A stretch of 24,000 nt of DNA, from positions 50,553-74,552 of the forward strand of contig JANQHQ010000036.1 in assembly GCA_028282595.1 (NCBI GenBank). The letters run 5' to 3'. The DNA is from Chlorobium sp. (GTDB lineage Bacteria; Bacteroidota; Chlorobiia; Chlorobiales; Chlorobiaceae). The position numbers and the translations under genes are program-made. The notes under the pieces were generated by a model that was not told where the DNA came from, searched no databases, and was given only the letters and a program-made list of their open reading frames with translations. This document shows, piece after piece, positions 4,201-22,111 of the stretch (positions are counted from its first letter, which is position 1; every line of letters begins with the position of its first letter).

Positions 4201-4548
4201 ATGACCGATACATCATTCTCCGACTGGACAGCGATGAGCGACAAGACACTTGCCGGGCAGATAGGCGCTTTTGTGCGGCATCATCGCCTGGAACAGAACA
4301 AAACCCAGGATACGCTTGCACATGAGGCCGGCATCAGTCGATCAACGTTGAGCTTGCTGGAACGTGGCGAGACTGTCACCCTTGCCACGTTACTCCAGGT
4401 ACTCAGGGTGCTGGACCGGTTGCAGGTAATGAATGCATTTGTCGTTGAGGAGCGCATCAGCCCCCTGATGCTGGCCAAAATACAGAAAGAAAAAAGACGA
4501 CGAGCCAGAAGAAAGCAGGGCGACGATACAACGGAACACGATTGGTAA
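4201..4548 (+). CDS. hipB: XRE-family HTH antitoxin, HipB-like
   Basis: 115 aa. HTH_3 pattern (NKTQDTLAHEAGISRSTLSLLERGE). Stop lies 3 nt before the hipA start. Confidence 0.8.
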   Translation: MTDTSFSDWTAMSDKTLAGQIGAFVRHHRLEQNKTQDTLAHEAGISRSTLSLLERGETVTLATLLQVLRVLDRLQVMNAFVVEERISPLMLAKIQKEKRRRARRKQGDDTTEHDW

Positions 4549-4551
4549 GCA

Positions 4552-5856
4552 ATGGACGTAGCGGAAGTCAGAATATGGGGCGAGTTGGCTGGAGCTGTAG
4601 CATGGGACGATGCCGCCGGCCTGGCTGCCTTTGAATACGATCCCCGGCTCAAGGCAAAGGGGTGGGATCTGTCCCCCCTGAAAATGCCCGTTTCCGAAAC
4701 CAGAAGCACGTTTGTGTTTCCCGAGTTGCGTAAAAAAGCGAATCCCGGGCTGGACAGTTTCAAAGGATTGCCGGGGTTACTGGCAGACGTTCTACCCGAT
4801 CGATACGGAAATGAATTGATCAACCTGTGGCTGGCCCGGCAAGGTCGCCCGCAGAACAGCATGAATCCGGTGGAGATGCTCTGCTTTATCGGCACTCAGG
4901 GAATGGGTGCGCTGGAGTTCGAACCCTCTTTCTGGAAAGCGGAAAAAAGAACCTTCTCCGTTGAGATCGAGACTCTTGTGGACGTCGCAAAAAAGATGCT
5001 CACCAAAAAAGAAGCCTTTGCAGCCAACCTGGATGCGGATGCGAAAAAGACGGTGTCGGAACTTCTTCGTATCGGGACCTCGGCCGGCGGCGCAAGACCG
5101 AAAGCCGTGATCGCCTACAACGAAAAAACAGGAGAAGTTCGATCCGGCCAGACCAACGCCCCCAGGGGTTTCGAACATTGGCTATTAAAGCTGGACGGGG
5201 TGAGTGACGTGCAGTTGGGAACCTCTCACGGCTACGGCAGGGTGGAAATGGCATACTATACCATGGCACAAGCCTGCGGCATAATCATGATGCCGTCCCG
5301 GTTGCTCGAAGAAAACGAAAGAGCGCACTTTATGACCAAACGCTTCGACCGGGAAGGCGGATCGACGAAGCACCATATTCAGACCTTCAGTGCATTACAG
5401 CATTTCGACTACAACTCGGTTATGAGTTTCAGCTATGAGCAGCTCTTTCAAACCATGCGTAAGTTGAAGCTGCCCTATCCCGACGCGGAGCAGATGTTCA
5501 GGAGGATGGCGTTCAACGTGGTTGCCCGGAACTGTGACGACCACACCAAAAACTTTTCGTTCCGGTTGAAGCAGGACGCCAAATGGGAACTGGCGCCGGC
5601 TTATGATGTCTGCCACGCCTATCAGCCCAATCATCGATGGGTCAGTCAGCATGCATTGAGCATCAACGGAAAACGGGCGAACATCACGAAAGAAGATCTG
5701 CTGGCCATCGGCAATTCCATAAGCGTAAAAAAAGCCGCTGAAATCATTGACGAAGTCAATGCAGTTGTAGCGCAATGGAAACAATATGCCGATGACGTTG
5801 CGGTTTCACCCGGCCTGCGAGACCAGATCGCCAAAACCCTTGTTCACCTGAAATAA
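4552..5856 (+). CDS. hipA: HipA-family serine/threonine kinase toxin
   Basis: 434 aa. HipA N-terminal coupling region. GTSAGGARPKAV P-loop-like motif. Catalytic loop ARNCDDHTKNFSF. Confidence 0.9.
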   Translation: MDVAEVRIWGELAGAVAWDDAAGLAAFEYDPRLKAKGWDLSPLKMPVSETRSTFVFPELRKKANPGLDSFKGLPGLLADVLPDRYGNELINLWLARQGRPQNSMNPVEMLCFIGTQGMGALEFEPSFWKAEKRTFSVEIETLVDVAKKMLTKKEAFAANLDADAKKTVSELLRIGTSAGGARPKAVIAYNEKTGEVRSGQTNAPRGFEHWLLKLDGVSDVQLGTSHGYGRVEMAYYTMAQACGIIMMPSRLLEENERAHFMTKRFDREGGSTKHHIQTFSALQHFDYNSVMSFSYEQLFQTMRKLKLPYPDAEQMFRRMAFNVVARNCDDHTKNFSFRLKQDAKWELAPAYDVCHAYQPNHRWVSQHALSINGKRANITKEDLLAIGNSISVKKAAEIIDEVNAVVAQWKQYADDVAVSPGLRDQIAKTLVHLK

Positions 5857-6136
5857 TGTGTGCGAATCGCACAGGCCGGTCCATGCCGCCCCCGTCTGGA
5901 GTGATGCACGCTTTTGATGTCTCCAGGACCGCAGAATGGACATTTGCCGATAAGGAACTGCAACCGCACATAGAGGAGAAGACGAACAAAATATTTTTCA
6001 ACCTAATAAACAACGCCCCCTATTACTGGGAAACCTTGACTGGCAGAGGGAAAGTGGATACCTTTTTAGTTGTCCGGACATCCCCCGCACAAAGATGGAC
6101 AGTGCACAACATCGGCTTCAAAAAGGAACGAAAACA

Positions 6137-7402
6137 ATGAATCAGGAGACGAATAAAATCAACTGCCCTCACTGCGGCAAGGAAATAGATGTCAATGAGA
6201 TTTTATACCATCAGCTCGATGAAGAACTGAGGAAAAAATATAACGACCAGATTGCCGGAGAGCGTAAAGTGCTGGAGGAGAAAGAAGAAGAAATCAAAGC
6301 TGAAAAGGAGGCGATCGACAGGGCGGAAGAGGAGTATGCAGAGCGGGTTGCGACAGCCATAAAGTCGGGGGTGAAAGAGGAGCGGGAAAAACTCGAACGA
6401 TCGCTGAAACAGCAGGCAATGGAGGAGCAGGAGGAGAGGCTCGCCTCACTTCAAAAAGAACTCGACGACAAGACCGAGCAGGTAAAAGAGCTGAACAGGT
6501 CGAAAGCGGAGATAGAGCGCCTGAAACGTGACAAGGAAGAGCTGAGAGACAAAATAGAACTCGAAGCAGAACAAAAGATCAATGCGACCCTTGCCGAAGA
6601 AAAGGAAAAAATCCAAAAAGCAGCGGCTGAAAAAGCCCGGCTGAACATTTCCGAGAAAGATCATGTCATCAATCAGCTGAGAGAACAACTTGTGGAAGCT
6701 CAGCGTAAAGCCGAGCAGGGATCGATGCAGCTGCAGGGAGAAGTCCAGGAACTAGCCATCGAGGAGTGGCTTTCCGCGCAGTTTCCCCTCGATACCATCG
6801 ATGAAATTAAAAAAGGACAGCTCGGGGCAGACTGCCTGCAGATAATCAATACGCACACCCGCCAGAATTGCGGCGCCATCTACTACGAGAGCAAACGCAC
6901 TAAAAGCTTCCAGCCATCCTGGATCGAAAAATTCAAGGCCGATATACTCCAGAAGAATGCCGATGTCGGCGTTCTGGTAACCGAAGCCATGCCTGCCGAC
7001 ATGGATCGCCTTGGGCTGAAAGACGGCATATGGGTCTGCTCATTCGAAGAGTTCAAGGGATTGTGCACTGTGCTGAGAGAGTCGGTCATTCGTATCAGCA
7101 CGGCGCTCACCACCCAAGAGAACAAGGGCGAGAAAATGGGTATGCTGTACGATTTTCTGACGAGCAACGAGTTCCGACTTCAGATCGAGGCCATTGTCGA
7201 AGGTTTCACCCAGATGAAAGCCGATCTCGAGTCGGAGAAACGATCCATGCAGGGAATATGGAAAAAGAGGGAAAAACAGATAGACAAGGTGCTTCTCAAC
7301 ACCAATCACATGTACGGCTCCATCAAGGGTATTGCCGGTAGCGCCATACAGTCAGTCCCGCTGCTCGAGCTGCCATCAGGTGACGACTCCGAGAACAGCT
7401 GA
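6137..7402 (+). CDS. DUF2130-like protein: N-terminal zinc-ribbon, long E/K coiled coil, C-terminal PD-(D/E)xK-like domain
   Basis: The ORF is open from 6095, but the likely start is the ATG at 6137 (MNQETNKINCPHCGKEIDV). About 190 aa of heptad-like E/K/R-rich sequence follow. The C-terminus has GADCLQ...IYYESKRTK (D...ExK). Confidence 0.65.
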   Translation: MNQETNKINCPHCGKEIDVNEILYHQLDEELRKKYNDQIAGERKVLEEKEEEIKAEKEAIDRAEEEYAERVATAIKSGVKEEREKLERSLKQQAMEEQEERLASLQKELDDKTEQVKELNRSKAEIERLKRDKEELRDKIELEAEQKINATLAEEKEKIQKAAAEKARLNISEKDHVINQLREQLVEAQRKAEQGSMQLQGEVQELAIEEWLSAQFPLDTIDEIKKGQLGADCLQIINTHTRQNCGAIYYESKRTKSFQPSWIEKFKADILQKNADVGVLVTEAMPADMDRLGLKDGIWVCSFEEFKGLCTVLRESVIRISTALTTQENKGEKMGMLYDFLTSNEFRLQIEAIVEGFTQMKADLESEKRSMQGIWKKREKQIDKVLLNTNHMYGSIKGIAGSAIQSVPLLELPSGDDSENS

Positions 7403-7753: not shown

Positions 7754-8251
7754 CTAAAAAGTCGGATTGTTGTTCCCTATACTTCCTCCTGTCATCAAAA
7801 ACAAAAGCCTTGAGAACGCATCAATTGGCTGTATAGCATCCCAATGTTCCGCCAATTGTCCATTTTCCAGCCTGAAAGTGTCCGTTATGATAAACCCTTT
7901 TTTCTCGTCGCCTCTGTGTTTCGCTTGCATAGTGACATGGCTGTGTAAAACAACAAAATCTCCATCAGCCATAACCCGCTTTACATCAAAAGAATATTCC
8001 GGAAATCTTTTTGTCATTGTTTTCACATAACTTACAAGCCCGGATACCTCATCCGGTATTGCTCTATTGTGCTGTATATATGAGCCCTTTCCATACTTTT
8101 CGAGCGTGTATTCGAAATCATGCTCATTCATCAAGTGCTGAAAGAAGTCCAGAACAACCCTGACATTATCGGTTTCCTGTGGAGTCCAGTGATCTTGCAA
8201 GTGTTTGTCGATCTCAATTCTCGGTGCCACGTTCTGACTTACATTTTCCAT
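7754..8251 (-). CDS. SnoaL/NTF2-like fold protein (putative cyclase or isomerase-like)
   Basis: 165 aa. Pattern NVRVVLDFFQ...YIQHN...DGDFVVLH...TDTFRLENGQLAEHWD is typical of SnoaL-like NTF2 proteins. AGGAGG lies 8 nt upstream of the ATG. Confidence 0.6.
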   Translation of the reverse strand: MENVSQNVAPRIEIDKHLQDHWTPQETDNVRVVLDFFQHLMNEHDFEYTLEKYGKGSYIQHNRAIPDEVSGLVSYVKTMTKRFPEYSFDVKRVMADGDFVVLHSHVTMQAKHRGDEKKGFIITDTFRLENGQLAEHWDAIQPIDAFSRLLFLMTGGSIGNNNPTF

Positions 8252-8301
8252 AGTTAGCCTCCTCTTTCACTCATTCTATTGTTTTATAGTGACAGCTGCC
8301 A

Positions 8302-8329
8302 TCCTTTCTCAGCCAGTAACAAGCCATAC
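8302..8329 (-). repeat. 28-nt conserved element, copy B (5' leader of the SnoaL-like gene)
   Basis: TCCTTTCTCAGCCAGTAACAAGCCATAC. Same orientation as copy A and a similar distance (about 50 nt) from the downstream ATG. Confidence 0.8.
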
Positions 8330-8410
8330 TCGTACTTCATCTTTCTGGCAAGCTCTTTTCCCCTGTATCTAATTAATAGAAAAACTCTTAACGACTTATT
8401 GGCGTTACGG

Positions 8411-8425
8411 AACAACGTCCCCTAG
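8411..8425. repeat. 15-bp direct repeat AACAACGTCCCCTAG, copy 1
   Basis: Exact match to 9849-9863. Lies 20 nt beyond the stop of the CDF gene and is followed by a local TAGCGTAC x2 duplication (8423-8438). Confidence 0.7.
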
Positions 8426-8444
8426 CGTACTAGCGTACTCAGTC

Positions 8445-9680
8445 CTACTCAGAAAAAAGGTGAAACTTCTTACGCTCCATCGGACAACTGTCCACAGCGG
8501 CCTCGATACCGATTTCCGCAACCTTTATTTTTCCGGCAAACTTTTCATCTAAAAGTTTTAATGTATCCTGATATACACGCGAATATCGACAGCTTCGAGT
8601 ATGCGTATCCGTCACTAAATCAAATGAAACCTGATATGGCGCCAGCTCGCCAACAGCACGCAAATCGTGAAAATCGATCAGCTCATCATCCGATTTGATA
8701 TATTCAGAGAGCACTTGATGAAGCTCCTTAAACATTGGATGCGATCGATCTACCGGGTCAACATGTGCCACCGCTCTCCATCCAAGCTTCGTCTCCACCG
8801 CAGTTTCAGCCTTCTCTGCAAGTAAGTGCGCCGCATTAAGCGTCATCTTGGCATCCACCTCAATATGGAACGATACCATGCGTACCTCCCCATATTGATG
8901 CACCATGATTTCATGAACGCCCAAAACCTCGTCCAGCGTCTCTACCGTCTCATGGATTTTCACTATATCTTCAGGATCCGGACACACTCCAAGCAAAATA
9001 TCGATGGCTTCCCGCGCGTATTGAACTCCGGTAAAGAGAATAAAGGCCGAAACTCCAATTGCCGTCCATCCATCGAGAGAAGGAAACCCCATCTGGGCAC
9101 AGATCAACGCCACCACCACCAACAGCGTGCAAACTACATCATAGGTATGGTTCCAGGCATCCGCCTTAAGTACCTGCGATTTAGCCATCTTTGCCAGGTT
9201 GCGCGAAAAAACAGCCATCCAGACCTTCACTCCCACCGTAACGGCAACCACAACGAGGACCCAGAAAGGCGCTTCTATTTGTTTTGGATTCAGCAAACGC
9301 ATTACGCCCGACTTGGCCACCTCAAATCCAACTAACAGCAAAGCAAGAGACAATACCAATGTTGCCACCGCTTCAATGCGACCGTGTCCGAAAGGATGAT
9401 GTTCGTCCTGCGGTTTCCGAGACCAATGAAATCCCAAGGCAATAACCAAACTGCTTCCTACATCTGCCAAACTATTCGTGGCATCGGCGATCAGAGAAAT
9501 GCTGCCGGAAACGAATCCCACCCAGCCTTTGGCAACGGTCAGACAAAGGCTGGCCACAGTGCCAACCCATCCGGCTAACATACCGATTCTGGCGCGGTTT
9601 TCGCGACTGTCAGGATCCTGCATCGGATCCATATACCGCTTAACCAGCAACTTCATTACGGGACAAATCATAAAACTCAA
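8445..9680 (-). CDS. Cation diffusion facilitator (CzcD/FieF-like) metal transporter with a second C-terminal cytoplasmic domain
   Basis: 411 aa. Six hydrophobic segments. SLIADATNSLAD and HHPFGHGR motifs typical of CDFs. First cytoplasmic domain ends ...VAHVDP. An extra ~80-aa repeat of that domain follows. The true start may be an internal Met (residue 9 or 17). Confidence 0.85.
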   Translation of the reverse strand: MSFMICPVMKLLVKRYMDPMQDPDSRENRARIGMLAGWVGTVASLCLTVAKGWVGFVSGSISLIADATNSLADVGSSLVIALGFHWSRKPQDEHHPFGHGRIEAVATLVLSLALLLVGFEVAKSGVMRLLNPKQIEAPFWVLVVVAVTVGVKVWMAVFSRNLAKMAKSQVLKADAWNHTYDVVCTLLVVVALICAQMGFPSLDGWTAIGVSAFILFTGVQYAREAIDILLGVCPDPEDIVKIHETVETLDEVLGVHEIMVHQYGEVRMVSFHIEVDAKMTLNAAHLLAEKAETAVETKLGWRAVAHVDPVDRSHPMFKELHQVLSEYIKSDDELIDFHDLRAVGELAPYQVSFDLVTDTHTRSCRYSRVYQDTLKLLDEKFAGKIKVAEIGIEAAVDSCPMERKKFHLFSE

Positions 9681-9863: not shown

Positions 9864-9871
9864 TCCGAAAA

Positions 9872-10372
9872 ATGACTGATAAACTGACAGAAAAAAAACG
9901 TAGCTGGAATATGAGCCGTATACGCTCTATTCACACAAAGCCAGAAATATTATTGCGTTCATTACTGCACCGAATGGGTTTTCGTTTTCGTTTGTATAGC
10001 AAACATCTCCCTGGTCGTCCAGACATAGTACTGCCAAAATACAAGACAGCGATCTTCGTTCATGGATGTTTCTGGCACCAACATCCTGGCTGTAATGAAG
10101 CAACCCTCCCGAAGACAAACCAAGAGTATTGGAAATCAAAACTTGAAAGGAACGTTATACGGGACAAGAAACACCAGCAAGAACTGAGAAAAGCAGGTTG
10201 GCGAGTCCTGCAATTTTGGGAATGCCAGTTGGAAAAGGATCCCATTCGTATTGCTATGCTCGTATCACTTAAACTCCGGCGAAAGGAAGCAGAAAAAAGA
10301 ACCTATGCCTTCCCTTCACGGGAAAAGCTTCTCAAAATGGCTGAATCTCATGCGAATTATCGCAAGAAGTAA
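9872..10372 (+). CDS. vsr: Very-short-patch repair endonuclease
   Basis: 166 aa. SWNMSRIRSIHTKPE, GRPDIVLPKYKTAIFVHGCFWHQH and the following EYW pattern are diagnostic of Vsr. Confidence 0.9.
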   Translation: MTDKLTEKKRSWNMSRIRSIHTKPEILLRSLLHRMGFRFRLYSKHLPGRPDIVLPKYKTAIFVHGCFWHQHPGCNEATLPKTNQEYWKSKLERNVIRDKKHQQELRKAGWRVLQFWECQLEKDPIRIAMLVSLKLRRKEAEKRTYAFPSREKLLKMAESHANYRKK

Positions 10373-10382
10373 AGTATTACTG

Positions 10383-11444
10383 TTAAATGTTTTTCGAATT
10401 CCAGTCATATAATGTTTCACGAATAGCCTTGCCCAAGGCAGCACCGAGTTGCGGCGGAATCGCGTCTGAGACCTGACGGATTTGATCGCTGAGCGTGCCC
10501 AGCAACTCGTAGTCTTCAGGAAATCCTTGAAGTAGCATCGCTTCATAGACACTCAGCCTTCTATCGGCATTCGGGTGTACATGGATCTCCCGGTTTCCGT
10601 AGGCAACGGTCAAACTGGGCTTGTCCCATTGCAGAACACGAAACGACCTCCCCTGCTTGTGGCCATTTTTTAAAGACCCATCAGTGAATTTTCTGGAGCG
10701 AGGGGACATGGTCCAGTGGTTCGGATGGAACGCGATATCTTCCTTCTTCGTCCCCTGCTTAAAAAAAAGCGGTGCAGGTAAATCCTTCAATTTACTCGCA
10801 ACCGTAAGAGGTACTGTCGTCTCCGCTTCTGGAAACGTGAACTTGATATTGGGATACTTGACCTTGTTGAATCCAACAAGAAACACGCGGCGCCGGTGTT
10901 GGGCAACTCCAAAATGTGCGGCATCGAGTTCCTCCTCGAAAAGCTTGAATCCAGCACGGGAGAACAGCCTCTTGATTGTGTTGTACTCCTTTCGGTGCTT
11001 TGCAGACCTGATGCCTTTTACATTCTCGAAAATGAAAAAGTCGAGATCATATTCCTCATTGAGAACGCGAAGTATGCATGCATAGCGACGCGGCAAAGTG
11101 TGCCTTACGTCATCGCCGTTGAAATGCACGTTTCCACTAGAGAAGGTCTGGCATGGTGCACCACCGATCACGCCCCGCGGCTTAACTGAAACACATTTGA
11201 GCTGGTACAAATCTAGGATAGTAGAGGGATATGTGTGCGCAAGGTCCGCCACACGACACACCGTCTGCCCTCGATTGTGGTTGTAGCTTTTCGCCGCCAC
11301 TGGGTCTATGTCAAGGGCTAACTCTACAGAGAAACCAGCGGACGAGAAACCCAAATCGAAACCACCGCAGCCGGAAAAGAAGCTGATGACCGTTTTTAGC
11401 TGTGCTGTATTCTCCTTGATGTTATTCTGTATTTCTTCCTGCAT
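10383..11444 (-). CDS. DNA (cytosine-5)-methyltransferase
   Basis: 353 aa. Motif I FSGCGGFDLGF, motif IV GGAPCQTFS, motif VI FIFENVKG, motif VIII QRRRVFLVGF, then a variable region, then RRLSVYEAMLLQGFPEDY and a degenerate motif X (VSDAIPP). Confidence 0.9.
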   Translation of the reverse strand: MQEEIQNNIKENTAQLKTVISFFSGCGGFDLGFSSAGFSVELALDIDPVAAKSYNHNRGQTVCRVADLAHTYPSTILDLYQLKCVSVKPRGVIGGAPCQTFSSGNVHFNGDDVRHTLPRRYACILRVLNEEYDLDFFIFENVKGIRSAKHRKEYNTIKRLFSRAGFKLFEEELDAAHFGVAQHRRRVFLVGFNKVKYPNIKFTFPEAETTVPLTVASKLKDLPAPLFFKQGTKKEDIAFHPNHWTMSPRSRKFTDGSLKNGHKQGRSFRVLQWDKPSLTVAYGNREIHVHPNADRRLSVYEAMLLQGFPEDYELLGTLSDQIRQVSDAIPPQLGAALGKAIRETLYDWNSKNI

Positions 11445-11547
11445 AAATCCTCAGTTAGTCCTATAAATTACGGTGTTTTGGGTCTCAATGTAGTCACTGG
11501 AACGATAATCACGTTTTAGACCGTACATCGCCACACACGCTCCTATT

Positions 11548-11593
11548 GGCATACTGGTCAGTGACGGATGGGCATACTGGTCAGTGACGGATG
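11548..11593. repeat. Perfect 23-bp tandem duplication (GGCATACTGGTCAGTGACGGATG x2) spanning the nuclease stop codon
   Basis: Copy 1 is 11548-11570 and copy 2 is 11571-11593, identical at all 23 positions. The length is not a multiple of 3. Confidence 0.95.
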
Positions 11594-12637
11594 CCTATCT
11601 AAAGAATCTGTTACGCCACGGACAACAATGGATGATAGCGATGGCGAATCAGCCTGCCCAATTCGCAAACAGATCTTCCCGTTCCGCAAAGGAGTAAACT
11701 CCTCTAGGATCCCACGCACATCAGAGGGCCACTTTGCGTCAATGTCCATTTGACGAGCATCCCAATACGCGCTACATGCAGGTCTGAACAGGCATAGCCT
11801 GCAATGCTCGGGCAGGGCTACCGCGAGAACGGTAGTGTCCATGGTTCCGTCTTGCACGGCGTCAATTCGGTTGTTCGCAGCCCGCAGAAACTCCTTTGCC
11901 TCGTGAAGAAGGCGTTCGGCATGTTCTGGCTCAAAAACAACCTCTATAGGCTCACCTTGAAGCGGAATTACCTCCAATCTGACAGGCCAAGTATCCGTTC
12001 TTTGTCTGTAGAGGGCTGCGTAGAGTTGCATTTGAATTCTGTATGCCTGCTTGAGTTCACGGGAACACTTTTCTTGTCCCGACTCCAAAATGGCTCCGCT
12101 CTTGTAGTCACTGAGGACCACACCCTCAGTCGTCTCGCTTGCACGATCAATGAATCCGCCGAGCTCCCCCTCATCTGATTCTACCCAGAGCTCAAATTCT
12201 GTCGCACGACGGGATGGCTCGGGGAGCTTGCCAGAACCCCGGTGCGCGTCGCGGGCTATCTCCACAGCCCTACTGTATGTCCGCAGTCTACGAACCTGGA
12301 AATCTGGAATGCTCCGGCTCAGGGGTACCTGGTGTCTCCTTAGCGGGGAAAGCTCCATGCGTGCCTCCGCCTCCGAGACAAGAGCTTTCCATCTCTCATC
12401 GACTCCTTCATTGCCGACTCCTTCCAACTCGCCTCGACCTGCAGCCTCAAGAATCCGATGGGCGATGCTGCCAAGTTCTGCGTGCGGGGATGGCGGGAGG
12501 AGAGAGTCGTTGCCAGACGCAGTCCATACTTCTCGCAGCAAGCACGCTTGCATTGCCGTATAGCGAGACGGCGATACACGACGAAACCGCTTCATGGTTA
12601 GCCGCTCCAACAGTAGATTTGTGCCAGATTTCTCCAT
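11558..12637 (-). CDS. Cas4/RecB-like PD-(D/E)xK nuclease with four-Cys (Fe-S type) signature
   Basis: 359 aa. N-terminal Cys (MQACLLRE), GSIAHRILE, FELWVES, GGFIDRA, VLSDYKSG (D/ExK), QMQLYA (QxxxY) and C-terminal CRLCLFRPAC (CxxCx5C). The start ATG overlaps the helicase stop as TAATG (12635-12639). Confidence 0.8.
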   Translation of the reverse strand: MEKSGTNLLLERLTMKRFRRVSPSRYTAMQACLLREVWTASGNDSLLPPSPHAELGSIAHRILEAAGRGELEGVGNEGVDERWKALVSEAEARMELSPLRRHQVPLSRSIPDFQVRRLRTYSRAVEIARDAHRGSGKLPEPSRRATEFELWVESDEGELGGFIDRASETTEGVVLSDYKSGAILESGQEKCSRELKQAYRIQMQLYAALYRQRTDTWPVRLEVIPLQGEPIEVVFEPEHAERLLHEAKEFLRAANNRIDAVQDGTMDTTVLAVALPEHCRLCLFRPACSAYWDARQMDIDAKWPSDVRGILEEFTPLRNGKICLRIGQADSPSLSSIVVRGVTDSLDRHPSLTSMPIRH

Positions 12638-15600
12638 TATGTACCCAACCGCTGATATACCCAGCTCATCCGCCGGTGAAGATTAAACGTGTCGACTATA
12701 CAAACCGGGGCGTCTGCCCCAAGTGATGCCCGGGCTTCTGCGAGAATTCCATCAGGCTGCTCGGTATTCCAGAGGGGATGGGTCAGGATGACACTCTGGT
12801 CGGCAATGTTCCAGCCATGGAGGGGGCCGAATTCGGCAGGCTCACACGACTGGAACGACTGACAGAAAGTCGTACATAGCGAGCCAGAGAACTCTAACCA
12901 GCCAGTGAGCTCGGGCGACGAGAAATCGCCGTTTACACCACAAACGTATGCGGGATCTGCGAGTATACGCAGAATTGACATCCCCAGCCTCCAATCGAGA
13001 AGGCTGTGGTAGCTCATGTTTCGATAGAGGCATAGACAGTCGTAACAGGCCGATTGGCATGCGTTGGCATGTTCCGCAGAAAGCAGTTTCTCGATGAATG
13101 TGTCTTCGTCGTGTTCAGCCCCAGTGATTATGTCGAGCACTCGTCGCCAGTTGTCTTCCTGTGACAGCCAAGCCGTGAAACCAGCACCATTCTCAAGGTG
13201 GTCATTTACAATGACTTCGCCTGCGTGTGTTCCGTCATCAAGTTCGATGGCCCGCACGGTGCTGATGTCAATTTCCTCAGGGTCAATATCGAGGTCTTCC
13301 GCGACAACCGAGCGCAGAATGAATGCGGCTGAGTAATAGGCGGCCTTCACGGCGGCAGCCTGCCCCAGTTGGTTGCGCGGGATAAGATCGAGACACAGCG
13401 ACGGGTGCAACGAATGTGGGCGTATCCTGAGCACGTCCGTGACTTTTGGCGCTGCCAGAGCAAACGAGTCGGTCTGCGCGGTCTCTGCTGTGAAGAGCAC
13501 GTTGTCATCGCCCCGGATGTTCTGGTATCGCTCATCGATCCACTGGTGCGAGAGCGTGACTCCTCCACGGCTCCATCGAGCGGACCCAAGCCCACCAGTA
13601 AACAGTCGACCGGCGCGATCATTGATCCTGTAGACGTGTCCGCCAGACGTTGGAACAAGACCGGTGTTCGTGCTTGGGACGACCACAGGGGGGACATCGG
13701 TTTTTTCGGCCACGGAGCTCGTGCCACGCGGCAGGAATTCGTCATCTGCTTTCGCGTCCACTCCATGGCTGAATGACGTTCTAAACGCTGCGGGGATAAC
13801 AATTTCGAACACACGAAATGCATTCTCACCCTCACGGCTGTTTCCGCAATCGGGACAGCCTGCCATGTCAGGTTCGGCATTATAGGTGTCCACGAAATGA
13901 CAGAGGTCACATCGTGCCATCCACATGCGCCGGGGAAATGGGTTACCGGATACAGGATGCCAAGATGGATCGGGGAGAAGCGGACATGTAAAACCGATAG
14001 AGGTATAGACCCGTTTATCCTTTGTCTTCTGAGAGCCCGGCGCAAACTCCGTAATGGCAAGATCAAGATCACGGTCAATAGTCATGGCTTCTCGACGACG
14101 GAATCCGTGAAACAGCAACCTGACACGGGATGGCATCCCATACATGGGCAGAATTGCGCCTTCCGCAAGCCTTTCGGCCAGTCCTTCGCCGACGAGCTCT
14201 ACGCTGTTCGCACATTCTTGGACTTGTGCGAAAAGGTTTTCCCGGACGTACGTCACCATGTCGCCAACCGAGACCCCTTCTGTACTTGCCAGAATGGAAG
14301 CGACGACTTGGGGTACCTCCGGCGAAGCTGTGAGCCATTCCTCAACAGCCTGCCGCCGGTCGGGATTCCCGAGCCAATCAGCGACAGTGCCGAACTCGCC
14401 ATGGCTATCCGGCGGCGTTGGGCTGTCCCACCACCGAACGCCCGCTGCGCGGAACGCCTCCGACAAACAGGCTTTCGCTAAAAGGCGTTTGGCAATCTCT
14501 TCTCGCCTCATAGACAGAAAAGGAACAGGAGGCAAGTCGCCCGTGATCCGGCGGGGGCGGCTGTAGTAGAACTCGTCATGACTCCGGCCTCGACACAGCG
14601 TCAGCACCGCTGCAAATGCCTGACCACGCCTGCCCGCTCGGCCCACGCGCTGCTGGTAGTTGAATCGCATGGGCGGCATGTTTGCCAACACAACAGCCTG
14701 CAAATTGCCGATGTCCACACCGACTTCCATGGTGGTCGTAACGCTAAGCAGGTCAATCGAATCAACGAGAAGAATTGGCGGACGAGCTCTATCTGCTTCG
14801 GTTCGCACCACAACATCTCTAAAGCATCGCTGACGATCTGGTTGATCGTCCGTCTGAGCCGTCAATTCCTCGCAATGGAGCCGCAGGGGAGCGCGATGCT
14901 CAACGGCCTCGCTTGCGTAGTAGTTTTTGCTATGAAGGTCTTGGCACTGCGCATCCGGTTCACGGTTGATCTCACCGAGGCAACCAGTGCAGACCCCGGC
15001 TGCGCGGTGCATGTGGACACGCTGACAGGACGGACACACCCAGATTGGATCGTCTTGAAGCCCTAGCCTCACAAGCAGACGGTGCGCTTGCAGTTTCGCA
15101 CTCTCATGTCCACCTGCTTGGCAAATCGCATCCCACGTGCCTGCCAGAAGCGTTGACGCGTCCGCACCGTTCTGTGTGGCACAGGCTCGGATGTAGTTTC
15201 GGAGTCTTGCCCTTGCTGGGGGATCCCAATTCATCCAATCGTCAAGCCAGTCTGGAGCAGGCTGCCGTTCTTGATGGTAACGGTAGAGGTCGCCCATGAT
15301 TCGCACGCATCCGTGGCACAGGTCCCGAAAAGTATCCGGCGGCAGCCCAGCACGCCCTGCATGTTCTTCCCATACCTCGTCAGATAGATCAAGGCATGCG
15401 TACCCAAGCCCAGCCGACTCAAAGCCGAAGTAAAGGCGACTGAATAACACATTCATGATTTCCGTGCGAACCTTGCCGCGCACACGGTCTCTTCTCTCAA
15501 TCGCACTCTCCGGCAAACCATTGCGCCAGCATGCATCACTGTTTGTATAGTCAAAGAATTCAGTCCAGTGGTGATCTTCGCCTTCGAAATTGAACATTTG

Positions 15601-18483
15601 GTACATCACGTCATTGCCTGCGGGGTTGATGCCCAGTTTTTTCAAACGCTTGATCAACAGCAGTGAACGTGTGCCTGACACATCTTCCGCATCAAATTCA
15701 TATAGCAGGCGTAGTGGAACCATTCGCGTCGAAGCTTGTCGCCTGATCGCTTCGAGCGCGCTTGAGGCTTTCTGACGCCCCTGTTCCAGGTTGTCCCGAA
15801 GAATTCCGGCAAGGCCGTCGGGTATCTCCGTTCTCGCGATCTCGATTTCGCGCAATAAGCGCTCTGCAATTCCCGGGTTTTCCGCGGCACATGTACGTGC
15901 TCCAGCGCATTGTGCCTCACCGTGTTCTTCCAAGTCTGCCAGCAAAAGGCCTTCACTGACCGCAATACGGTGCAACTCGTCATACATGGCTTCACGCACA
16001 AGGTCCAAGTAATGTGTTCGTTCAATTCCATTCGAGATGGACGCTGCATCCTCTCTGCTGTCCGAGAAAACCACGAGTTTGCGGGTATCCCCTTCGGGAA
16101 GGCTATAGAAAAGCTCCTTGGATAGAAGCTGACTCACGCGAGAAAAACCTGTTCTAAATCCACGCACTGGTGATGTGCGGTACATTTTTCTGCTGTAGTT
16201 GGCCGCACAGTTGGGACAACATGATGGTAGCGCCGAGAAGTTCTGCTCATCGTCAGCCCCATCGATGGCGGGAATGACATACAGGTATCCCGGAATAGCC
16301 GTGCCTTCTGGCGCCAGTGGACCGTTCGGAGCATCGGTAACGCGACCACTGAATGCATCAAGGTGTTTGATGGCCCAGCGAGCTTGTTCTGAACCGTCGA
16401 GGACAACACGCGGCTGACGCCATGTTCGCGCATCATCTTTTAGCATGCTTCTGCCTCTTGGCCAGAAGATCGCAAAGTCACCGTAGGTCTTCCGGTCCAC
16501 AAACCGAGCCGCCTGTTTGTCGGGAAGCCCTTCAATGTCCGGGTCCGTGCTCAGGATCTCGATTCCTCTCCCATCGCGATTCCGAAGTCGGCTGCCACCA
16601 AAGAAAATAGTCCCGCACTGCTCGCAGTATAAAACCTCCAACACACGATGCTGTGTATCAGGATTCTCGCAGAAAATCCGGTTCTGCGAGAAGAGTTTGC
16701 CTGCCGGTCTGACGCCATCAAAATGAGCACCGTCACACTGGCATCCGGGCTGAACGCATGCCCAGAGGCCTTCGATGTTCCTGAAGAACCAGTGAAATCG
16801 AAAAGATGGCAGTATTGGTGCTGCATGCTGAGAGGCTGCAATTCCGCGCGCGACAAGAAGTCCACGCACTGCTTGCATCGCCATCTCCTCGCTGCCCGCG
16901 TCTGGAAAAACTCGGGCCGCAAAGTCAGAAATCGATATTGCCCTGGTACGATTCCCGTCCTTACATGCAAGGAGCATGGTCTTAGCTAACGTTTCCTGCA
17001 CGGACTGCAGAGCAGAACACAGGTGCGTCTGAGGATCGTCACCAGTTGCAGCAGGGTTCAGCGACGTTGCTAGCAACGTACAGGATTCAGCGAGGCTGTC
17101 AGTAGTATTACCAGCTCGGATGCCATCGGCAAAATTTGCGAATGCTGCAGCATAGAGAGTACCGTCATCATCCTCGGCAATCGGTTGTTCAGATCCAGCG
17201 AGGATCTGAGAGGCTGACCAGTTACATCCGAAGAAATCTGAGAGAAACGATAGACTGTCGGTATTGGATGGATCGAGGGACGCACTGGACGCCAAGATGC
17301 GCAACCTGGGATCGGTTGGTGAAAGACCAAGCCTGCGGAAAAGAAGCCGCAAGAGATATGCAACTTCCGTTCCTGAAGTCCCGCGGTAAAGATGAAGTTC
17401 ATCAATGATCAGATGAAACACGTTACCTGGTTGTTCGAGCCATTGACGAGTCTGCTCAAATATTGGCGAATCAGCTTCTCTCATCAGCATGATACTGAGC
17501 ATGCTGTAGTTCGTGATAAGGATATCGGGCGGCGATTGCTGCATATCCCAGCGAGAGCGCATTTCAGCACCATCAAGACGAGGGAAAAAATAGATACTGT
17601 CGCGTGCCGCTTCGCGTTCTTCTTCGGACGATGCTTCTGCCTCCCGCCGAGCGGCGTGCACAGCCGCCTCGGTTGCGCCTCGATCCAGAACCGTTAGTTC
17701 TCTGGCAAGTCTCTCAATGCGCCCTCGATCCGGGTTCCCGCTTTGGTTCTGCTCGTGACCTGGTACGGGGGTGTTCCCGGTGTACCGACCAAAGTAGATC
17801 CGGTTTCCGTTCATGTGTTCAGAGCACCATTCTCGAGCTGAATCGGAATCCAGTGCACGCCGGAGACGTGTTAGCTGGTCCTCTACAAGCGCGTTCATGG
17901 GATATAGAATAAGGGCTCGCACGGCTGCCGGTCTGGTCTCATGTCCTCGCTGCGGAACGCGGTACGAACGTGCTATTCGGTTTCTGCTATTGCAAGATGC
18001 TTGCCAATCCTCGTTCGACCACCAATCATTGACATGAGGATCCTGCGCTCCGGGTTTTCCCCAATGGATGCTTTCAGCAGCAATCGACGCAAATAAAGGT
18101 AACAAGAAAGACTCTGTCTTACCGGAACCGGTCCCTGCCGTAACGACTGCATTCTGGCCGGTGACGGCACGCTGCAACATTGCAATCTGGTGGGCATAAA
18201 GGGGGTAGTTGCCTACCAAACCTGAGAGCGAGAGCTCTTTGAATCTCGCGACAGCTTCGGGGCTCATACCAGGCAAGTCTTCTGCTGTCAGTGCAGCAAG
18301 AGGCCGGTCGGTTGTGTAACGTGGAAGAGGTTCAATCCAAGGCTCTTGGTTTAAAATCCCCGGACGCCTTAGCATTTCTTCACGCTCCTGCTCCAATCCT
18401 GGAAATTGAGTGCCAAACGCTGTCTTCAGGTACAGGATGAAGTTGTCCCGGATCTTTTCAAAAGCACCAACTGGGTCATTCAT
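12637..18483 (-). CDS. Giant DExH-box helicase fused to a DUF1998 (MrfA/YprA-type zinc-binding) domain; DruE-like / DrmA+DrmB-like
   Basis: 1948 aa. Helicase motifs:
- motif [12 protein letters not shown] (about 18115-18135)
- motif Ia [13 protein letters not shown]
- motif Ib ILITNYSML
- motif [11 protein letters not shown] (17392-17403)
- motif III ILASSAS
- motif [13 protein letters not shown] (aa ~803)
- motifs [19 protein letters not shown]...[12 protein letters not shown] (14620-14655)
The C-terminal region has CDLCHF-x14-CPDCG and [27 protein letters not shown] (12994-13059), which is DUF1998-like. Confidence 0.85.
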
Positions 18484-18635
18484 AACAAATGTCCTTAAAA
18501 CTTGCTTTACTGACAGAATTAATCAACAAAAACGCTGTAACACATTGAGCATCGCATCAATCAAAGGTTATCATGATCATGTGTTCTTGTGCCTCTTGGT
18601 GATTTTCATGAAATATACCCTCAATGACAGAACGT

Positions 18636-19628
18636 TTATCGAATTTCAACTCTTGCCGGTCTTTGTCCTACCTTTGAGAGAGCAACCAGCGCGATCTGTG
18701 GAGGAACGTCCTCATACATCAGCCAATCTGCGCATTCACAGCCGGGGACTAGCTTCTCCTCAGGTTTGTGGACAGGTGGTTGCCCTGAGCACAGGCAAAC
18801 GGCTCTGGATATGACTGAGGGCAGCGGAATCCTTACAGGAATGCACAACCGGTATCTCCTTTCATCATAAGCTGCCACAGTTATTCCTTTGGCGTTAAGG
18901 TTTAAATAACGGCCCCAGTCTCGATCCACCTTTGCTCCTGAACCATCCCGGAAAAATACATACGTAGGAAGTGTTGTTGTTGGATTGAGATATTTAGAAA
19001 GGCGAGGAAGCGAATCCGAACGTGTCCGCTGAAACATGTGCGTGCTAACGCAGAAATCGTAACGAGTCCAGCCGAAGTTTTCAGGGATACTGTAGTCCAG
19101 CATTTTCTCGTACTCCAAAAGCGTGCCGCACCAATTCACGAACGTCCATGCTGGAGGAATTTTTGGGCAACGAAGCCCAAGCTTCTCAGTGAACGCAGCC
19201 AATACCTTATCTGATTCAGATTGAATTTTTATGGTGTCAGGAAACAGACCATGAGGTCCGGGATAACGTTTAGTGATGATCTTAATAGAGCCGCTTTGCG
19301 CATTTGCTGCTTCGGCGAGCTGTTCTTGAGTCTTCAAGCAACGAGCACCGGTAAGCACAGCAACTGGCAATCCTGCACGTGGTAGCCGACAAAGTGAGGC
19401 AGGTGATGCTGTTATTATACTCTTTCCATTTTCGTAGTAAGCATCGCAGTGTCCGAGGGCTTCATAGCATTGCAATAGTCCGCTTCGGATAGCTGCTAAG
19501 TTAGATGTACGCTCTTCGCTCAATTTGTTTGCGGAAAGGAAATCAATGGCATCACAGTAATCAGCCCATCTCATTTTTCCACGAGCAGATATGACAAAAA
19601 GCAATCGGTTAGGATCAGCGTATATCAT
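18636..19628 (-). CDS. Hypothetical protein, 330 aa, no recognisable motif (operon partner of the helicase)
   Basis: Clean ORF. The ATG is preceded by AAGGAGG 7 nt upstream. Its start overlaps the end of the 684-aa gene by 14 nt. Its stop lies 152 nt from the helicase start. No P-loop, nuclease or HTH signature visible. Confidence 0.7.
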   Translation of the reverse strand: MIYADPNRLLFVISARGKMRWADYCDAIDFLSANKLSEERTSNLAAIRSGLLQCYEALGHCDAYYENGKSIITASPASLCRLPRAGLPVAVLTGARCLKTQEQLAEAANAQSGSIKIITKRYPGPHGLFPDTIKIQSESDKVLAAFTEKLGLRCPKIPPAWTFVNWCGTLLEYEKMLDYSIPENFGWTRYDFCVSTHMFQRTRSDSLPRLSKYLNPTTTLPTYVFFRDGSGAKVDRDWGRYLNLNAKGITVAAYDERRYRLCIPVRIPLPSVISRAVCLCSGQPPVHKPEEKLVPGCECADWLMYEDVPPQIALVALSKVGQRPARVEIR

Positions 19629-21669
19629 GTGCGACCTCCTTATAATCCTTCCACAATGCTTGCAGTGCAGGAAGTGAAGGGGTAGAAATCCGCTTGCGCT
19701 TGTGCCAAAGGACTTCCTTCCAAAGGCGCAAACGCCGATGGTCCATGCATTGGATTCTTTTCGGTTTTTCGCTGGAGGGGTCTAAACCGCAATAGATGGC
19801 ATTTCCCTTGCCTTTCTTTTTCATAATCACTGCCCAAACAGGCTTCCAGTCATCTGATATGGATTCTCTTGGGCACTCAACAATTTCTCCTGGATTTCGT
19901 CCGATAAAATAGATTCGATTACCTTCGCTCGGCGGCAAGTAAACTTCAAGGCTCAAATCAGGGGGCGCAAAGCCGTCAACAATTATACCGGAACATGATT
20001 CATTTGAGCTACTATCGACCCTGTTACCAAACTTGTTTAATTGTGTTTCCGCTACCGTATTTAACCATGCTGATGATTCCAAGGCGTATAGAGATTTTGT
20101 ACGAACGCAATCGCCATTACGGCGTACTTCGAGTCTTATAAGCTTTTGGGCGCAGACCTCATCGGGGATATTATATAAACCAGTATCACAATCTGCCTTC
20201 AGAGGGATGTCGTTGCAAAACAGTTCTACTGGCTCGGGGGCTCCCCTAACCTCTATACGAGGCAGGCCGAATGTGAAATACTGGTTTCCACGATATTTAA
20301 GACCGCCAATAAACCGGATGCGCAATAGAGTAGGAAATGCGAGGAGAGGCAGAGTATCGCGAATGATCTCGTCGGAATTTGCCCTTTGAATTGAGTACAG
20401 CCGCCAACCTTCTGGCAAACCGGCAAGCATTTGAACCTCAGAAAAACCAGTGCAACAAGCAGTACCCCAAGTTTGTATTTTATCAATGTAATCCTTGTAA
20501 ACTAGCAGGTAAAATGGCTTGTCCTGAGGTATCTGGCTTTCCTCGATACATCCGTCGAAGCCAAATGGGGAAGCACTGACCATAACTCTGACCGGCCGCC
20601 TTGAAAGTGAAGTCCGCCATGAGTGTTCAGTGTCCTCAAGATTCAAGCCAACATGCCAATCAAGAAATGCAGCATCAAATATATTTTGTGTCTCATCCTC
20701 ACAAAGTATGGTTGACCACCCCTGCCTGTCCTCATAGCAATATAATGGCTCTGCACCATCATTTTGGACAAGTCGCAGCCCTTCCTCAGGGTACTCACGA
20801 TTCGATCTGCACCGCAAAGAAAAGTGGACCGTTTTGGCGGTTGGGTCAAGTGTCATCCCTATGCGTAGGGTCCCGAGCGAACTTCCTGTCTTCTCCCCAA
20901 GTTCCACCTGTGGCGGAATAGTACCATCCCAGTCTTCAAGTTCGTCCATAATCGCGGCCAGGAGCACTTCATGCGCTGCGGACTCCTCGGAGCTACGATT
21001 TTCCAGAAGACCCTTCGTGTGAGGCAGCAGGTAGTGGTGCATTTCTCGAGCGAGCAGATGGGAGAGTTCCCTGTCTGCAGGTGGGGAGGACGGATCGAAA
21101 CCGTTCTCAGCAAATAGCAACGGGAGCTTGTGGCGTTCGTCATCGGTTAGAATTGTCTGTGCTTTTGGCAGCCCTACGTACTCCCTGCTCCCCAGAATAT
21201 CAGCATGAAAGATGCCTAGTTCGCCGTTCTTATCCTGGTTGCTCCACACTTCAAGGTCAAACCAGAGTTCATACATCCTGTCGAAAGACGGATAGCTTCC
21301 TGCCACAGGCTCTACTCCCAGCAAATGACGAAGTCCAGGGTAGTAGGACGCACGTGAGAATCCCGGAACCGGAACGGTATCAGCAAGTGAAAACAGCGTA
21401 AGATATGCAAGGTAAGGAGGGTATTCCAGATGTCGATCGCGCCAAGCGTCATAGGCTTGAAGTGCCTGCTGACAAATGCTCCAACCGTGACGGGAATTCC
21501 ATGGTGGCCCTGTTTTTACAGCGGCAAGAAAATCATTGTGATCAACGTCATATGTAGCACCAATCTCATTGATTAAGTCAATAGTGACATAAAGGAAAAC
21601 ACGGGTGCCACTTCTATCTGAATTGAAAAAGCGTTTTCCTATAGCATTATTCCATGACAAATAATCCAC
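19615..21669 (-). CDS. Hypothetical protein, 684 aa, no recognisable motif (first gene of the candidate defence operon)
   Basis: Long uninterrupted ORF with a GTG start (MDYLSWNNAIGKRFFN...). No obvious SD. No Walker, nuclease or HTH motif seen. Lower GC than the helicase by hand counts. Confidence 0.65.
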   Translation of the reverse strand: MDYLSWNNAIGKRFFNSDRSGTRVFLYVTIDLINEIGATYDVDHNDFLAAVKTGPPWNSRHGWSICQQALQAYDAWRDRHLEYPPYLAYLTLFSLADTVPVPGFSRASYYPGLRHLLGVEPVAGSYPSFDRMYELWFDLEVWSNQDKNGELGIFHADILGSREYVGLPKAQTILTDDERHKLPLLFAENGFDPSSPPADRELSHLLAREMHHYLLPHTKGLLENRSSEESAAHEVLLAAIMDELEDWDGTIPPQVELGEKTGSSLGTLRIGMTLDPTAKTVHFSLRCRSNREYPEEGLRLVQNDGAEPLYCYEDRQGWSTILCEDETQNIFDAAFLDWHVGLNLEDTEHSWRTSLSRRPVRVMVSASPFGFDGCIEESQIPQDKPFYLLVYKDYIDKIQTWGTACCTGFSEVQMLAGLPEGWRLYSIQRANSDEIIRDTLPLLAFPTLLRIRFIGGLKYRGNQYFTFGLPRIEVRGAPEPVELFCNDIPLKADCDTGLYNIPDEVCAQKLIRLEVRRNGDCVRTKSLYALESSAWLNTVAETQLNKFGNRVDSSSNESCSGIIVDGFAPPDLSLEVYLPPSEGNRIYFIGRNPGEIVECPRESISDDWKPVWAVIMKKKGKGNAIYCGLDPSSEKPKRIQCMDHRRLRLWKEVLWHKRKRISTPSLPALQALWKDYKEVAHDIR

Positions 21670-21865
21670 GTTACCAAGTATTCAGTTTTATATCAACCAC
21701 GTCTTTTTGGTAAAATTCGCTGTACATCAACGCACAAGGCTTCCCTTGTCGATTATAGATCGAAAAAACACAGGAGCCAACTTCAAGGGTGGCAGAGCCT
21801 CAAAGTTATGAAAAAGCAATACCATATAATATACTGTGAACACACAGCGAGAGAAGAGAAAACAC

Positions 21866-21883: not shown

Positions 21884-22038
21884 CAAGCACGTTTCGCAAC
21901 TCACGAAACATCACATTCAGAAGCTTGCTCTGACTTCCCGTCTTTAGAGGCAATCGAGTGCATAGCCGGATGAAGCAACACGAAAACCCCTGTTTTCACA
22001 GAGGCTTTGAGATTTGATTATGTCCGATCGCTATGCTG

Positions 22039-22111
22039 TGGAGCTTAGGGGAGTCGAACCCCTGACCTTCTCATTGCGAACGAGACGCTCTACCAACTGA
22101 GCTAAAGCCCC
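22039..22111 (-). tRNA. tRNA-Ala (anticodon CGC)
   Basis: The 73-nt reverse complement GGGGCTTTAGCTCAGTTGGTAGAGCGTCTCGTTCGCAATGAGAAGGTCAGGGGTTCGACTCCCCTAAGCTCCA folds as a cloverleaf. It has a 7-bp acceptor stem with the G3:U70 Ala identity pair, anticodon loop TTCGCAA and T-loop TTCGACT. CCA is not encoded. Confidence 0.92.

Follow-up and report, generated by a model that had tools for sequence, protein, structure and literature searches.

Two coupled genes upstream of a Chlorobium DruE helicase are assigned to druF and druL of a type IV Druantia cassette

Type IV Druantia was defined as DruE with DruF and DruL and was described without the methylase DruM (Payne et al. 2021, PMC8565338; NAR 49:10868). 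It is among four DruE clades and makes up 18% of 566 loci (Loeff et al. 2026 preprint). Type II consists of DruM-DruF-DruG-DruE (Doron et al. 2018). Types I and II have been linked to host methylation, and DruE of both types is predicted to carry an inactivated Vsr-like nuclease (Bell et al., PMC12458937). In type III, it is the motif-less protein DruH, built of helical N- and C-terminal domains and of Ig-like domains, that recruits DruE and activates it on DNA junctions; there is no methylase, the host is not methylated, and DruE bears its own active phospholipase D (PLD) nuclease (2026 preprints, Loeff/Jinek, Beisel and others). Here we analysed a stretch of 24,000 nucleotides (nt) from Chlorobium sp. 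(contig JANQHQ010000036.1, positions 50,553 to 74,552; "the window"), in which two coupled genes for proteins of 684 and 330 amino acids (aa) lie upstream of a large helicase gene. Judged by their profile matches, the two are DruF and DruL of type IV Druantia, and the locus adds one more example of this known anti-phage system.

We compared the pair with the PADLOC models. The 684-aa protein (druF, 21669..19615, minus strand, GTG start) matched DruF4 (PDLC00054) with residues 1-682 on model positions 1-677 of 678 (E 3.2e-180), and the 330-aa protein (druL, 19628..18636, minus strand, ATG start) matched DruL4 (PDLC00056) with residues 7-329 on positions 3-324 of 330 (E 1.7e-62). A first-pass annotation, read from the letters of this DNA, had guessed at a likeness to the Druantia accessory genes upstream of DruE, and the two matches show the guess to be correct. 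It had left the pair unclassified and had named clear full-length homology to DruF as a finding that would speak against this; the alignment over residues 1-682 of the 684-aa protein is such homology. For the other identities it had considered (DruG, DruC/DruD or DrmE) no homology was found. The layout it gave agrees with the coordinates: both reading frames are long, druF and druL overlap by 14 nt, the druL ATG stands 7 nt downstream of AAGGAGG, and an AT-rich spacer of 152 nt (18484..18635, minus strand, 35.5% GC) separates druL from the helicase gene.

The helicase gene is druE (18483..12637, minus strand), encoding a superfamily 2 (SF2) protein of the YprA/MrfA family of 1948 aa. It matched DruE4 (PDLC00051) and DruE2 (PDLC00014/15) full length (E 0) and contains the Pfam DEAD and Helicase_C domains; in the PDB it matched 9wae ('Helicase', E 2.8e-247) and also YprA (6znp). 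The start of druK (12637..11558, minus strand, 359 aa) and the druE stop share 1 nt. DruK is a PD-(D/E)XK nuclease of the RecB/Cas4 type (PADLOC DruK, E 5e-18; Pfam PDDEXK_1, E 6e-19), and its motifs E149, IDR 163-165, DYK 177-179 and QxxxY 202-206 were kept in 14 orthologues, as were four cysteines (C32/C279/C282/C288, an Fe-S Cys motif). Beyond it lie the gene of a DruM-like C5 cytosine DNA methyltransferase (11444..10383, minus strand, 353 aa; Pfam DNA_methylase PF00145, E 4e-49; TIGR00675 dcm) and, in convergent orientation to it, vsr (9872..10372, plus strand, 166 aa; Pfam Vsr, E 4e-31, also PADLOC Vsr) for a very-short-patch (T:G mismatch) repair endonuclease. The explanation that best covers all six genes, and which we hold to be very probable, is that druF-druL-druE-druK with the C5 methylase and vsr make up a type IV Druantia system, with the pair as a putative sensing/licensing complex. 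DruF and DruL are already catalogued accessory families, mechanistically uncharacterised, and the new details leave their classification unchanged; the locus is a well-delimited further example of a type to which roughly one in five Druantia loci belongs.

Full-length matches of DruE in the PDB comprised 9wae, 9waf, 9wds, 9wdu, 9wdv, 9wdw and 9wdy ('Helicase', 1970 aa). The type III DruE structure 9tu7 was far more distant from the window DruE (E 9e-38). No DruF or DruL homologue was detectable in 9wae and the related entries, and a literature search for their codes found no citing paper.

Compared with type IV as described, the locus agrees in that DruF, DruL and DruE match the type IV models full length in the order druF-druL-druE, with a PADLOC-modelled DruK next. 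Payne et al. describe the type as having neither DruM nor DruG; DruG is absent here, but a C5 methylase with DruM2 as its top PADLOC match lies in the cassette. The locus differs in this methylase, usually with Vsr, that is carried here and at 40 related loci, and in DruL, which has been described as a separate hypothetical protein whereas by alignment it is a homologue of the C-terminal module of fused DruF proteins. With type II the locus shares a DruE that scores equally on DruE2 and DruE4, a C5 methylase, and the N-terminal ~190 residues of DruF (hhalign E 1.4e-4 with DruF2; PADLOC cross-match E 2e-6). In contrast, the DruF2 of type II has 923 aa and is unrelated past the N-terminal domain, and the window has the PD-(D/E)XK nuclease DruK. 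No cassette protein matched DruG (PADLOC), and DruL reached an hhalign probability of 0.2% against DruG2 of locus L051. Type I DruA-D were not matched even at E<=10, and hhalign against the 955-aa and 360-aa type I accessory proteins of N. watsonii gave probabilities <1%. DISARM class 2 (DrmE-DrmA-DrmB-DrmC-DrmMII) likewise brings together a helicase of the YprA family, a DUF1998-type module, a nuclease encoded separately, a C5 cytosine methylase and a large uncharacterised accessory protein. However, the window helicase matched DrmA over the ~65-residue Helicase_C core only (E 1e-8), the nuclease here is PD-(D/E)XK where that of DISARM is PLD, and no match to DrmE, DrmB or DrmC was found among the cassette proteins (PADLOC).

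Related loci were collected from both ends of the gene set: L001-L018 were seeded with DruF, and a reverse scan of metagenomes seeded with the DruE N-terminus gave 53 loci. The order druF-druL-druE was found in all seven DruF-seeded genome loci (Chlorobium, Ignavibacteria, a Methanobacteriota archaeon, a PVC-group bacterium, Kiritimatiellia, Desulfomonilaceae and Chitinivibrionales), and six of the seven continue into druK, the L007 contig stopping within druE. Wherever DruE was at least 55% identical and upstream sequence was available, both DruF and DruL were present, in DruF-seeded and DruE-seeded loci alike, so the absence of the pair from most helicase loci, which the first-pass annotation had allowed for, was not what we found. 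At ~45% DruE identity, the place of the pair is taken by the type II set (DruM, DruF2 of 923 aa, DruG2 of 933 aa), by divergent or fused DruF-DruL, or by other splits. Replacement of the pair across helicase homologues, which had been suggested as a check, is thus seen in the distant DruE clades.

Elsewhere druL and druE are separated by 0-70 nt or by an inserted NOV_C/DUF3883 gene. The insert encodes a PD-(D/E)XK-like protein of 260-265 aa and was located at 5131-5928 in L002, 13076-13873 in L015 and 13096-13878 in L016; for L003, L004 and L006, an insert of the same size was deduced from the ~830-nt spacing of druL and druE. It is possibly an additional effector or marks an insertion hotspot. 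A NOV_C remnant was looked for in the 152-nt gap of the window and none was found. druK is usual at related loci and missing in a few; in L014 (18717-20875) an HNH-like protein of 190 aa stands at the usual druK position. Two further loci deserve mention. In L004 (13861-19730), druE is in two frames (residues 1-1245 and 1247-1948), the frameshift being that of a pseudogene or an assembly error. At metagenomic locus L019 (OFES01000018.1), the DruE N-terminus shows 100% identity with that of the window, and the gene order agrees.

We next considered whether the pair could be an unrelated neighbour or a selfish passenger that has no role with the helicase and nuclease. The composition of the window would fit such a passenger: GC is 48.1% in druF and 47.7% in druL versus 55.0% in druE and 54.8% in druK, GC at third codon positions (GC3) is 45% and 42% in the pair versus 55%, the AT-rich spacer lies between the pair and druE, and the phylogeny of the pair is unlike that of DruE. 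The lower GC of the pair had been pointed out in the first pass and holds, though as a lineage-specific feature. The contrast is confined to the window and the L001 lineage; other loci differ by ~1-5 points, and in L005 (pair) and L004 (DruL) the GC is equal to or above that of the helicase. Against a passenger, the pair was directly upstream of druE and on the same strand at every locus examined, across the lineages listed above, with 0-30 nt to druE in several loci; no pair without druE was found among the loci examined, and the six-gene block moves as a unit. Taken together, we regard a passenger as very improbable. A scan of the region for sigma-70 promoters and terminators gave counts not above shuffled controls.

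Natural fusions indicate how the two proteins relate to each other. In the fusion proteins P0229 (1099 aa) and P0256 (1006 aa), all of the DruF4 model (1-678) is followed by all of the DruL4 model (3-325), while P0102 (962 aa) contains DruF at 1-583 and DruL at 623-956 (hhalign 99.8%, E 3.5e-30), with druE directly after it. Over its full length, DruL aligned with the C-terminal end of fused DruF proteins, and its C-terminus also matched that of DruF2 models of ~1011-1030 positions, whose N-terminus matches DruF. The alignments show DruL to be a homologue of the C-terminal module that longer, fused DruF proteins possess, and so not unrelated to them. At every locus inspected, the druF/druL junction was an overlap or near-abutment, and consecutive locus tags were found for the two genes in metagenome-assembled genomes at NCBI. 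Because end-to-end fusions exist, DruF and DruL make up one functional unit, and we infer that they form one complex. For reconstitution, the natural fusions mean that the two can be treated as one protein, which simplifies the task.

The unit appears to have been exchanged relative to the helicase. Pairwise identities of DruF and DruL moved together and not with DruE: L002 and L003 share 88% (DruF), 85% (DruL) and 84% (DruE), L003 and L018 share 58%, 58% and 82%, and L005 and L015 share 70%, 68% and 76%, respectively. In bootstrapped neighbour-joining (NJ) trees, L002 and L003 were joined by DruF (100%) and DruL (98%), whereas DruE instead joined L002 and L017 (100%). Similarly, L005 and L015 were joined by DruF (100%), while the DruE tree placed L015 with the remaining loci (87%) and L005 outside. 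Recombination of DruF-DruL as a unit relative to DruE, and hence an exchangeable module, is supported by these comparisons. Such recombination points to the pair as the specificity-determining part. The first-pass annotation had proposed an exchangeable specificity or sensor module; exchange is supported by the conflict between the DruF/DruL and DruE trees (98-100%), and the pair may have a specificity or sensor role. Separately, the central part of druF in L001 (~10700-11600, druF codons ~225-520) is ~72% identical to the window at the nucleotide level versus 85-93% in its flanks, which indicates an intragenic replacement or a fast-evolving part of the putative beta-rich region.

At a larger scale, the six genes (vsr, methylase gene, druK, druE, druL and druF) form a block at 9866-21692 (11.8 kb). 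L008/L009 share it at 97% identity and L010/L011 at 86%, between unrelated flanks. L008 is flanked by RadC, an EcoRII-C fragment and helix-turn-helix (HTH) genes, and L010 by genes for the ATP-synthase beta and epsilon subunits and for phosphoenolpyruvate carboxykinase (PEPCK). One end of the block lies 23 nt ahead of the druF start and the other 6 nt ahead of that of vsr. A shared block between unrelated flanks means that the six genes move together, as a sharply bounded cassette. At the cassette, no integrase, transposase, flanking repeat or attachment (att) repeat was found. At its druF end (21100-21692), the first ~600 nt are 83-89% identical to L008 and the rest 97-100%, which suggests that the cassette edge is a recombination tract of its own.

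A C5 methylase adjoins the cluster in 40 loci, either following druK or preceding druF. In the ten loci where none was detected, the contig runs out <=2.5 kb from the cluster on one side or both. The usual partner of the methylase is Vsr, replaced once by an HhH-GPD glycosylase (L013, 8163-10023); L017 has an extra gene of the uracil-DNA glycosylase (UDG) family upstream (7968-8594). The methylase probably belongs to the type IV set, contrary to the published definition without DruM. The minimal functional unit would then probably include both the C5 methylase and Vsr, and cloning without the methylase may give a toxic or inactive construct.

A further alternative is that the pair serves the methylase, as a regulator or specificity factor like an S subunit or the BREX accessory proteins, and not the helicase. 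Loci L005, L015 and L031 have the methylase and Vsr genes directly upstream of druF, and the methylase tree joins L005 and L015 like the DruF and DruL trees and unlike DruE. Most loci, however, place the methylase downstream of druK, 7 kb from druF-druL, and type II DruF homologues hold the same position relative to DruE. C5 methylases of 353 aa carry a target-recognition domain of their own, which also counts against a dedicated specificity factor. We find a role on the methylase side improbable.

We then examined the two proteins themselves. Pfam and NCBIfam scans of DruF and DruL gave no match at E<=0.1 or 0.01, and family profiles of both searched against all PDB sequences (hmmsearch) returned nothing, a lone match at E 0.35 being noise. 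The maximal Kyte-Doolittle mean over 19 residues was 1.3 and 1.5 for the pair, so no transmembrane segment is predicted. The earlier statement that neither protein has a recognisable motif therefore stands. A Walker-A string in DruL (AYYENGKS, 63-70) was dismissed as chance: its Lys occurs in 4/40 homologues and it lies in a predicted beta-hairpin. Clustering of homologues at 90% gave 103 and 119 for the two proteins, and the DruL family comprises 1927 representative clusters (E<=1e-3). DruF is acidic (net charge -21) and DruL basic (+9).

AlphaFold2 (AF2) gave confident models for DruF (predicted local distance difference test, pLDDT, 84; predicted template modelling score, pTM, 0.69) and DruL (pLDDT 91.5, pTM 0.88). 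DruF is predicted to have a helical N-terminal domain (~1-246), a beta-rich middle (~260-640) and a basic C-terminal helical hairpin (644-682); residues 480-580 are the most variable and lowest-confidence part of the middle, and the helical domain, with the lowest column entropy, is the most conserved part of the protein. Nine DruF models were matched, with only the N-terminal 250 aa common to all; seven models other than DruF4 were matched by this part alone. A profile of this domain found 11 fragments only in a set of 5.8 billion proteins, and no new architectures. The predicted N-terminus of DruL has an H-E-H-H-E-E order, which is winged-helix-like, followed by alpha/beta domains. Foldseek searches of DruF against the PDB and of DruL against the PDB and BFVD gave no match below E 1e-3; the best were E 0.04 for DruL (GyrA winged-helix region) and E 0.0016 for DruF (an S-layer Ig-like array). 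Weak neighbours included the GyrA winged-helix region, LAGLIDADG and SUI1-like folds and Ig-like arrays, with template modelling (TM) scores <0.2 by query length; SUI1-like matches of ~80-90 columns alone reached 0.3-0.5 by target length. Structure prediction and Foldseek, which the first-pass annotation had recommended, thus yielded confident models and no informative neighbour.

The models bring to mind the DruH of type III. In both systems a large motif-less accessory component lies directly upstream of a ~2000-aa DruE, and the gross layout of DruH resembles that of the DruF model; the present locus differs in having the nuclease (DruK) and the methylase as separate genes and the accessory component split in two. 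The pair might therefore be a split, highly diverged structural counterpart of DruH, in which the DruF N-terminal domain would be a 3'-5' exonuclease, or a binder of DNA ends, in cryptic form. It would process replication or recombination intermediates and recruit and activate DruE, with methylation secondary. The combined length of 1014 aa fits this proposal, as does the DruF model with its helical N-terminal domain, its beta-rich array with weak Ig-like neighbours and its C-terminal helices; an N-terminal domain that is alone shared by the nine models and lowest in entropy also speaks for it. On the other hand, DruH models were not matched even at E<=10, the profile searches of PDB sequences were empty, and no constellation of acidic residues of the nuclease type was identified. 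The likeness is confined to gross layout, and beta-sandwich arrays are common. Type III, moreover, works without a methylase or host methylation, whereas a methylase is found beside the present cluster. We consider a DruH counterpart of this kind possible but unlikely. A broader version, in which the pair is a two-gene, sequence-unrecognisable DruH counterpart and all Druantia types share one architecture with a DNA-structure-sensing subunit that loads DruE and is built of a helical N-terminal domain, an Ig-like array and a C-terminal module, seems to us doubtful; to this, type IV would add 5-methylcytosine (5mC) as an obligatory self-mark and a sensor module open to exchange, with recombination independent of the helicase. 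If true, this would make the system a hybrid of epigenetic and DNA-structure sensing.

Returning to the reading of the pair as the sensing/licensing complex of a type IV system, we propose the following mechanism. The methylase would mark host DNA with 5mC, and Vsr would repair T:G damage arising from deamination of 5mC, limiting its mutational cost. The DruF-DruL complex would sense unmethylated or aberrant phage DNA and license the DruE translocase/helicase, after which the Cas4-like DruK nuclease would degrade the DNA. Within the complex, the conserved helical domain of DruF may serve as a constant docking or DNA-handling core, and DNA contact and recognition may fall to the variable, beta-rich part of DruF jointly with basic DruL and its winged-helix-like domain. 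Licensing of DruE is suggested by analogy with DruH, which recruits and activates DruE in type III; a complex of the pair with DruE, DNA binding and methylation dependence are likewise inferred.

Several observations weigh against this reading. No catalytic or DNA-binding domain was detected at significance in DruF or DruL, and the winged-helix call for DruL is based solely on the order of secondary structure elements in the AF2 model. No sequence homology of the pair to DruH, DruB/C/D, DruG or DrmE models was found. The methylase scores barely better on DruM2 (PDLC00030, its top PADLOC match, E 1.3e-76) than on the generic type II methylase model (MTase_II, E 6e-72), and it could be part of a hitch-hiking orphan Dcm/Vsr pair. 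The tree conflict between the pair and DruE is limited by trees that are NJ with simple distances and 12 taxa. Finally, no experimental report on type IV Druantia, DruF or DruL was found in the literature searched, and a search for DruF and DruL found that only the PADLOC paper treats either protein.

DruE homologues of 49-50% identity were also found on cyanobacterial plasmids of cultured strains, namely L073 (Nostoc sp. CENA543 pCENA543b) and H1 (Aphanizomenonaceae). In L073 a hypothetical gene of 361 aa stands directly upstream of the druE homologue, at the position of DruL. These strains could offer experimentally accessible type IV-like systems. The low-identity tblastn matches of DruE to plasmids that we inspected were type I or other systems.

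With regard to the surroundings of the cassette in the window, tRNA-Ala(CGC) (22111..22038, minus strand) lies just upstream of it, with atpH and atpF beyond. Together with a terminator-like hairpin (21983-22008, minus strand), this tRNA gene directly precedes the cassette. A repeat of its 3' end (att site) of at least 12 nt was looked for elsewhere in the window and not found. The other flank holds a CDF transporter, a SnoaL-like protein, a DUF2130 protein, a hipBA-like pair, bamD and the 3' part of argS. Here, on the plus strand, the genes of a HipB-like HTH protein and of a hipA kinase toxin are followed by that of the DUF2130 protein (4201-5856 and 6095-7402). The DUF2130 protein has a long Glu/Lys-rich, coiled-coil-like N-terminal half. 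Situated between the cassette and bamD/argS, the HipB/hipA/DUF2130 group may be a small defence or toxin-antitoxin islet.

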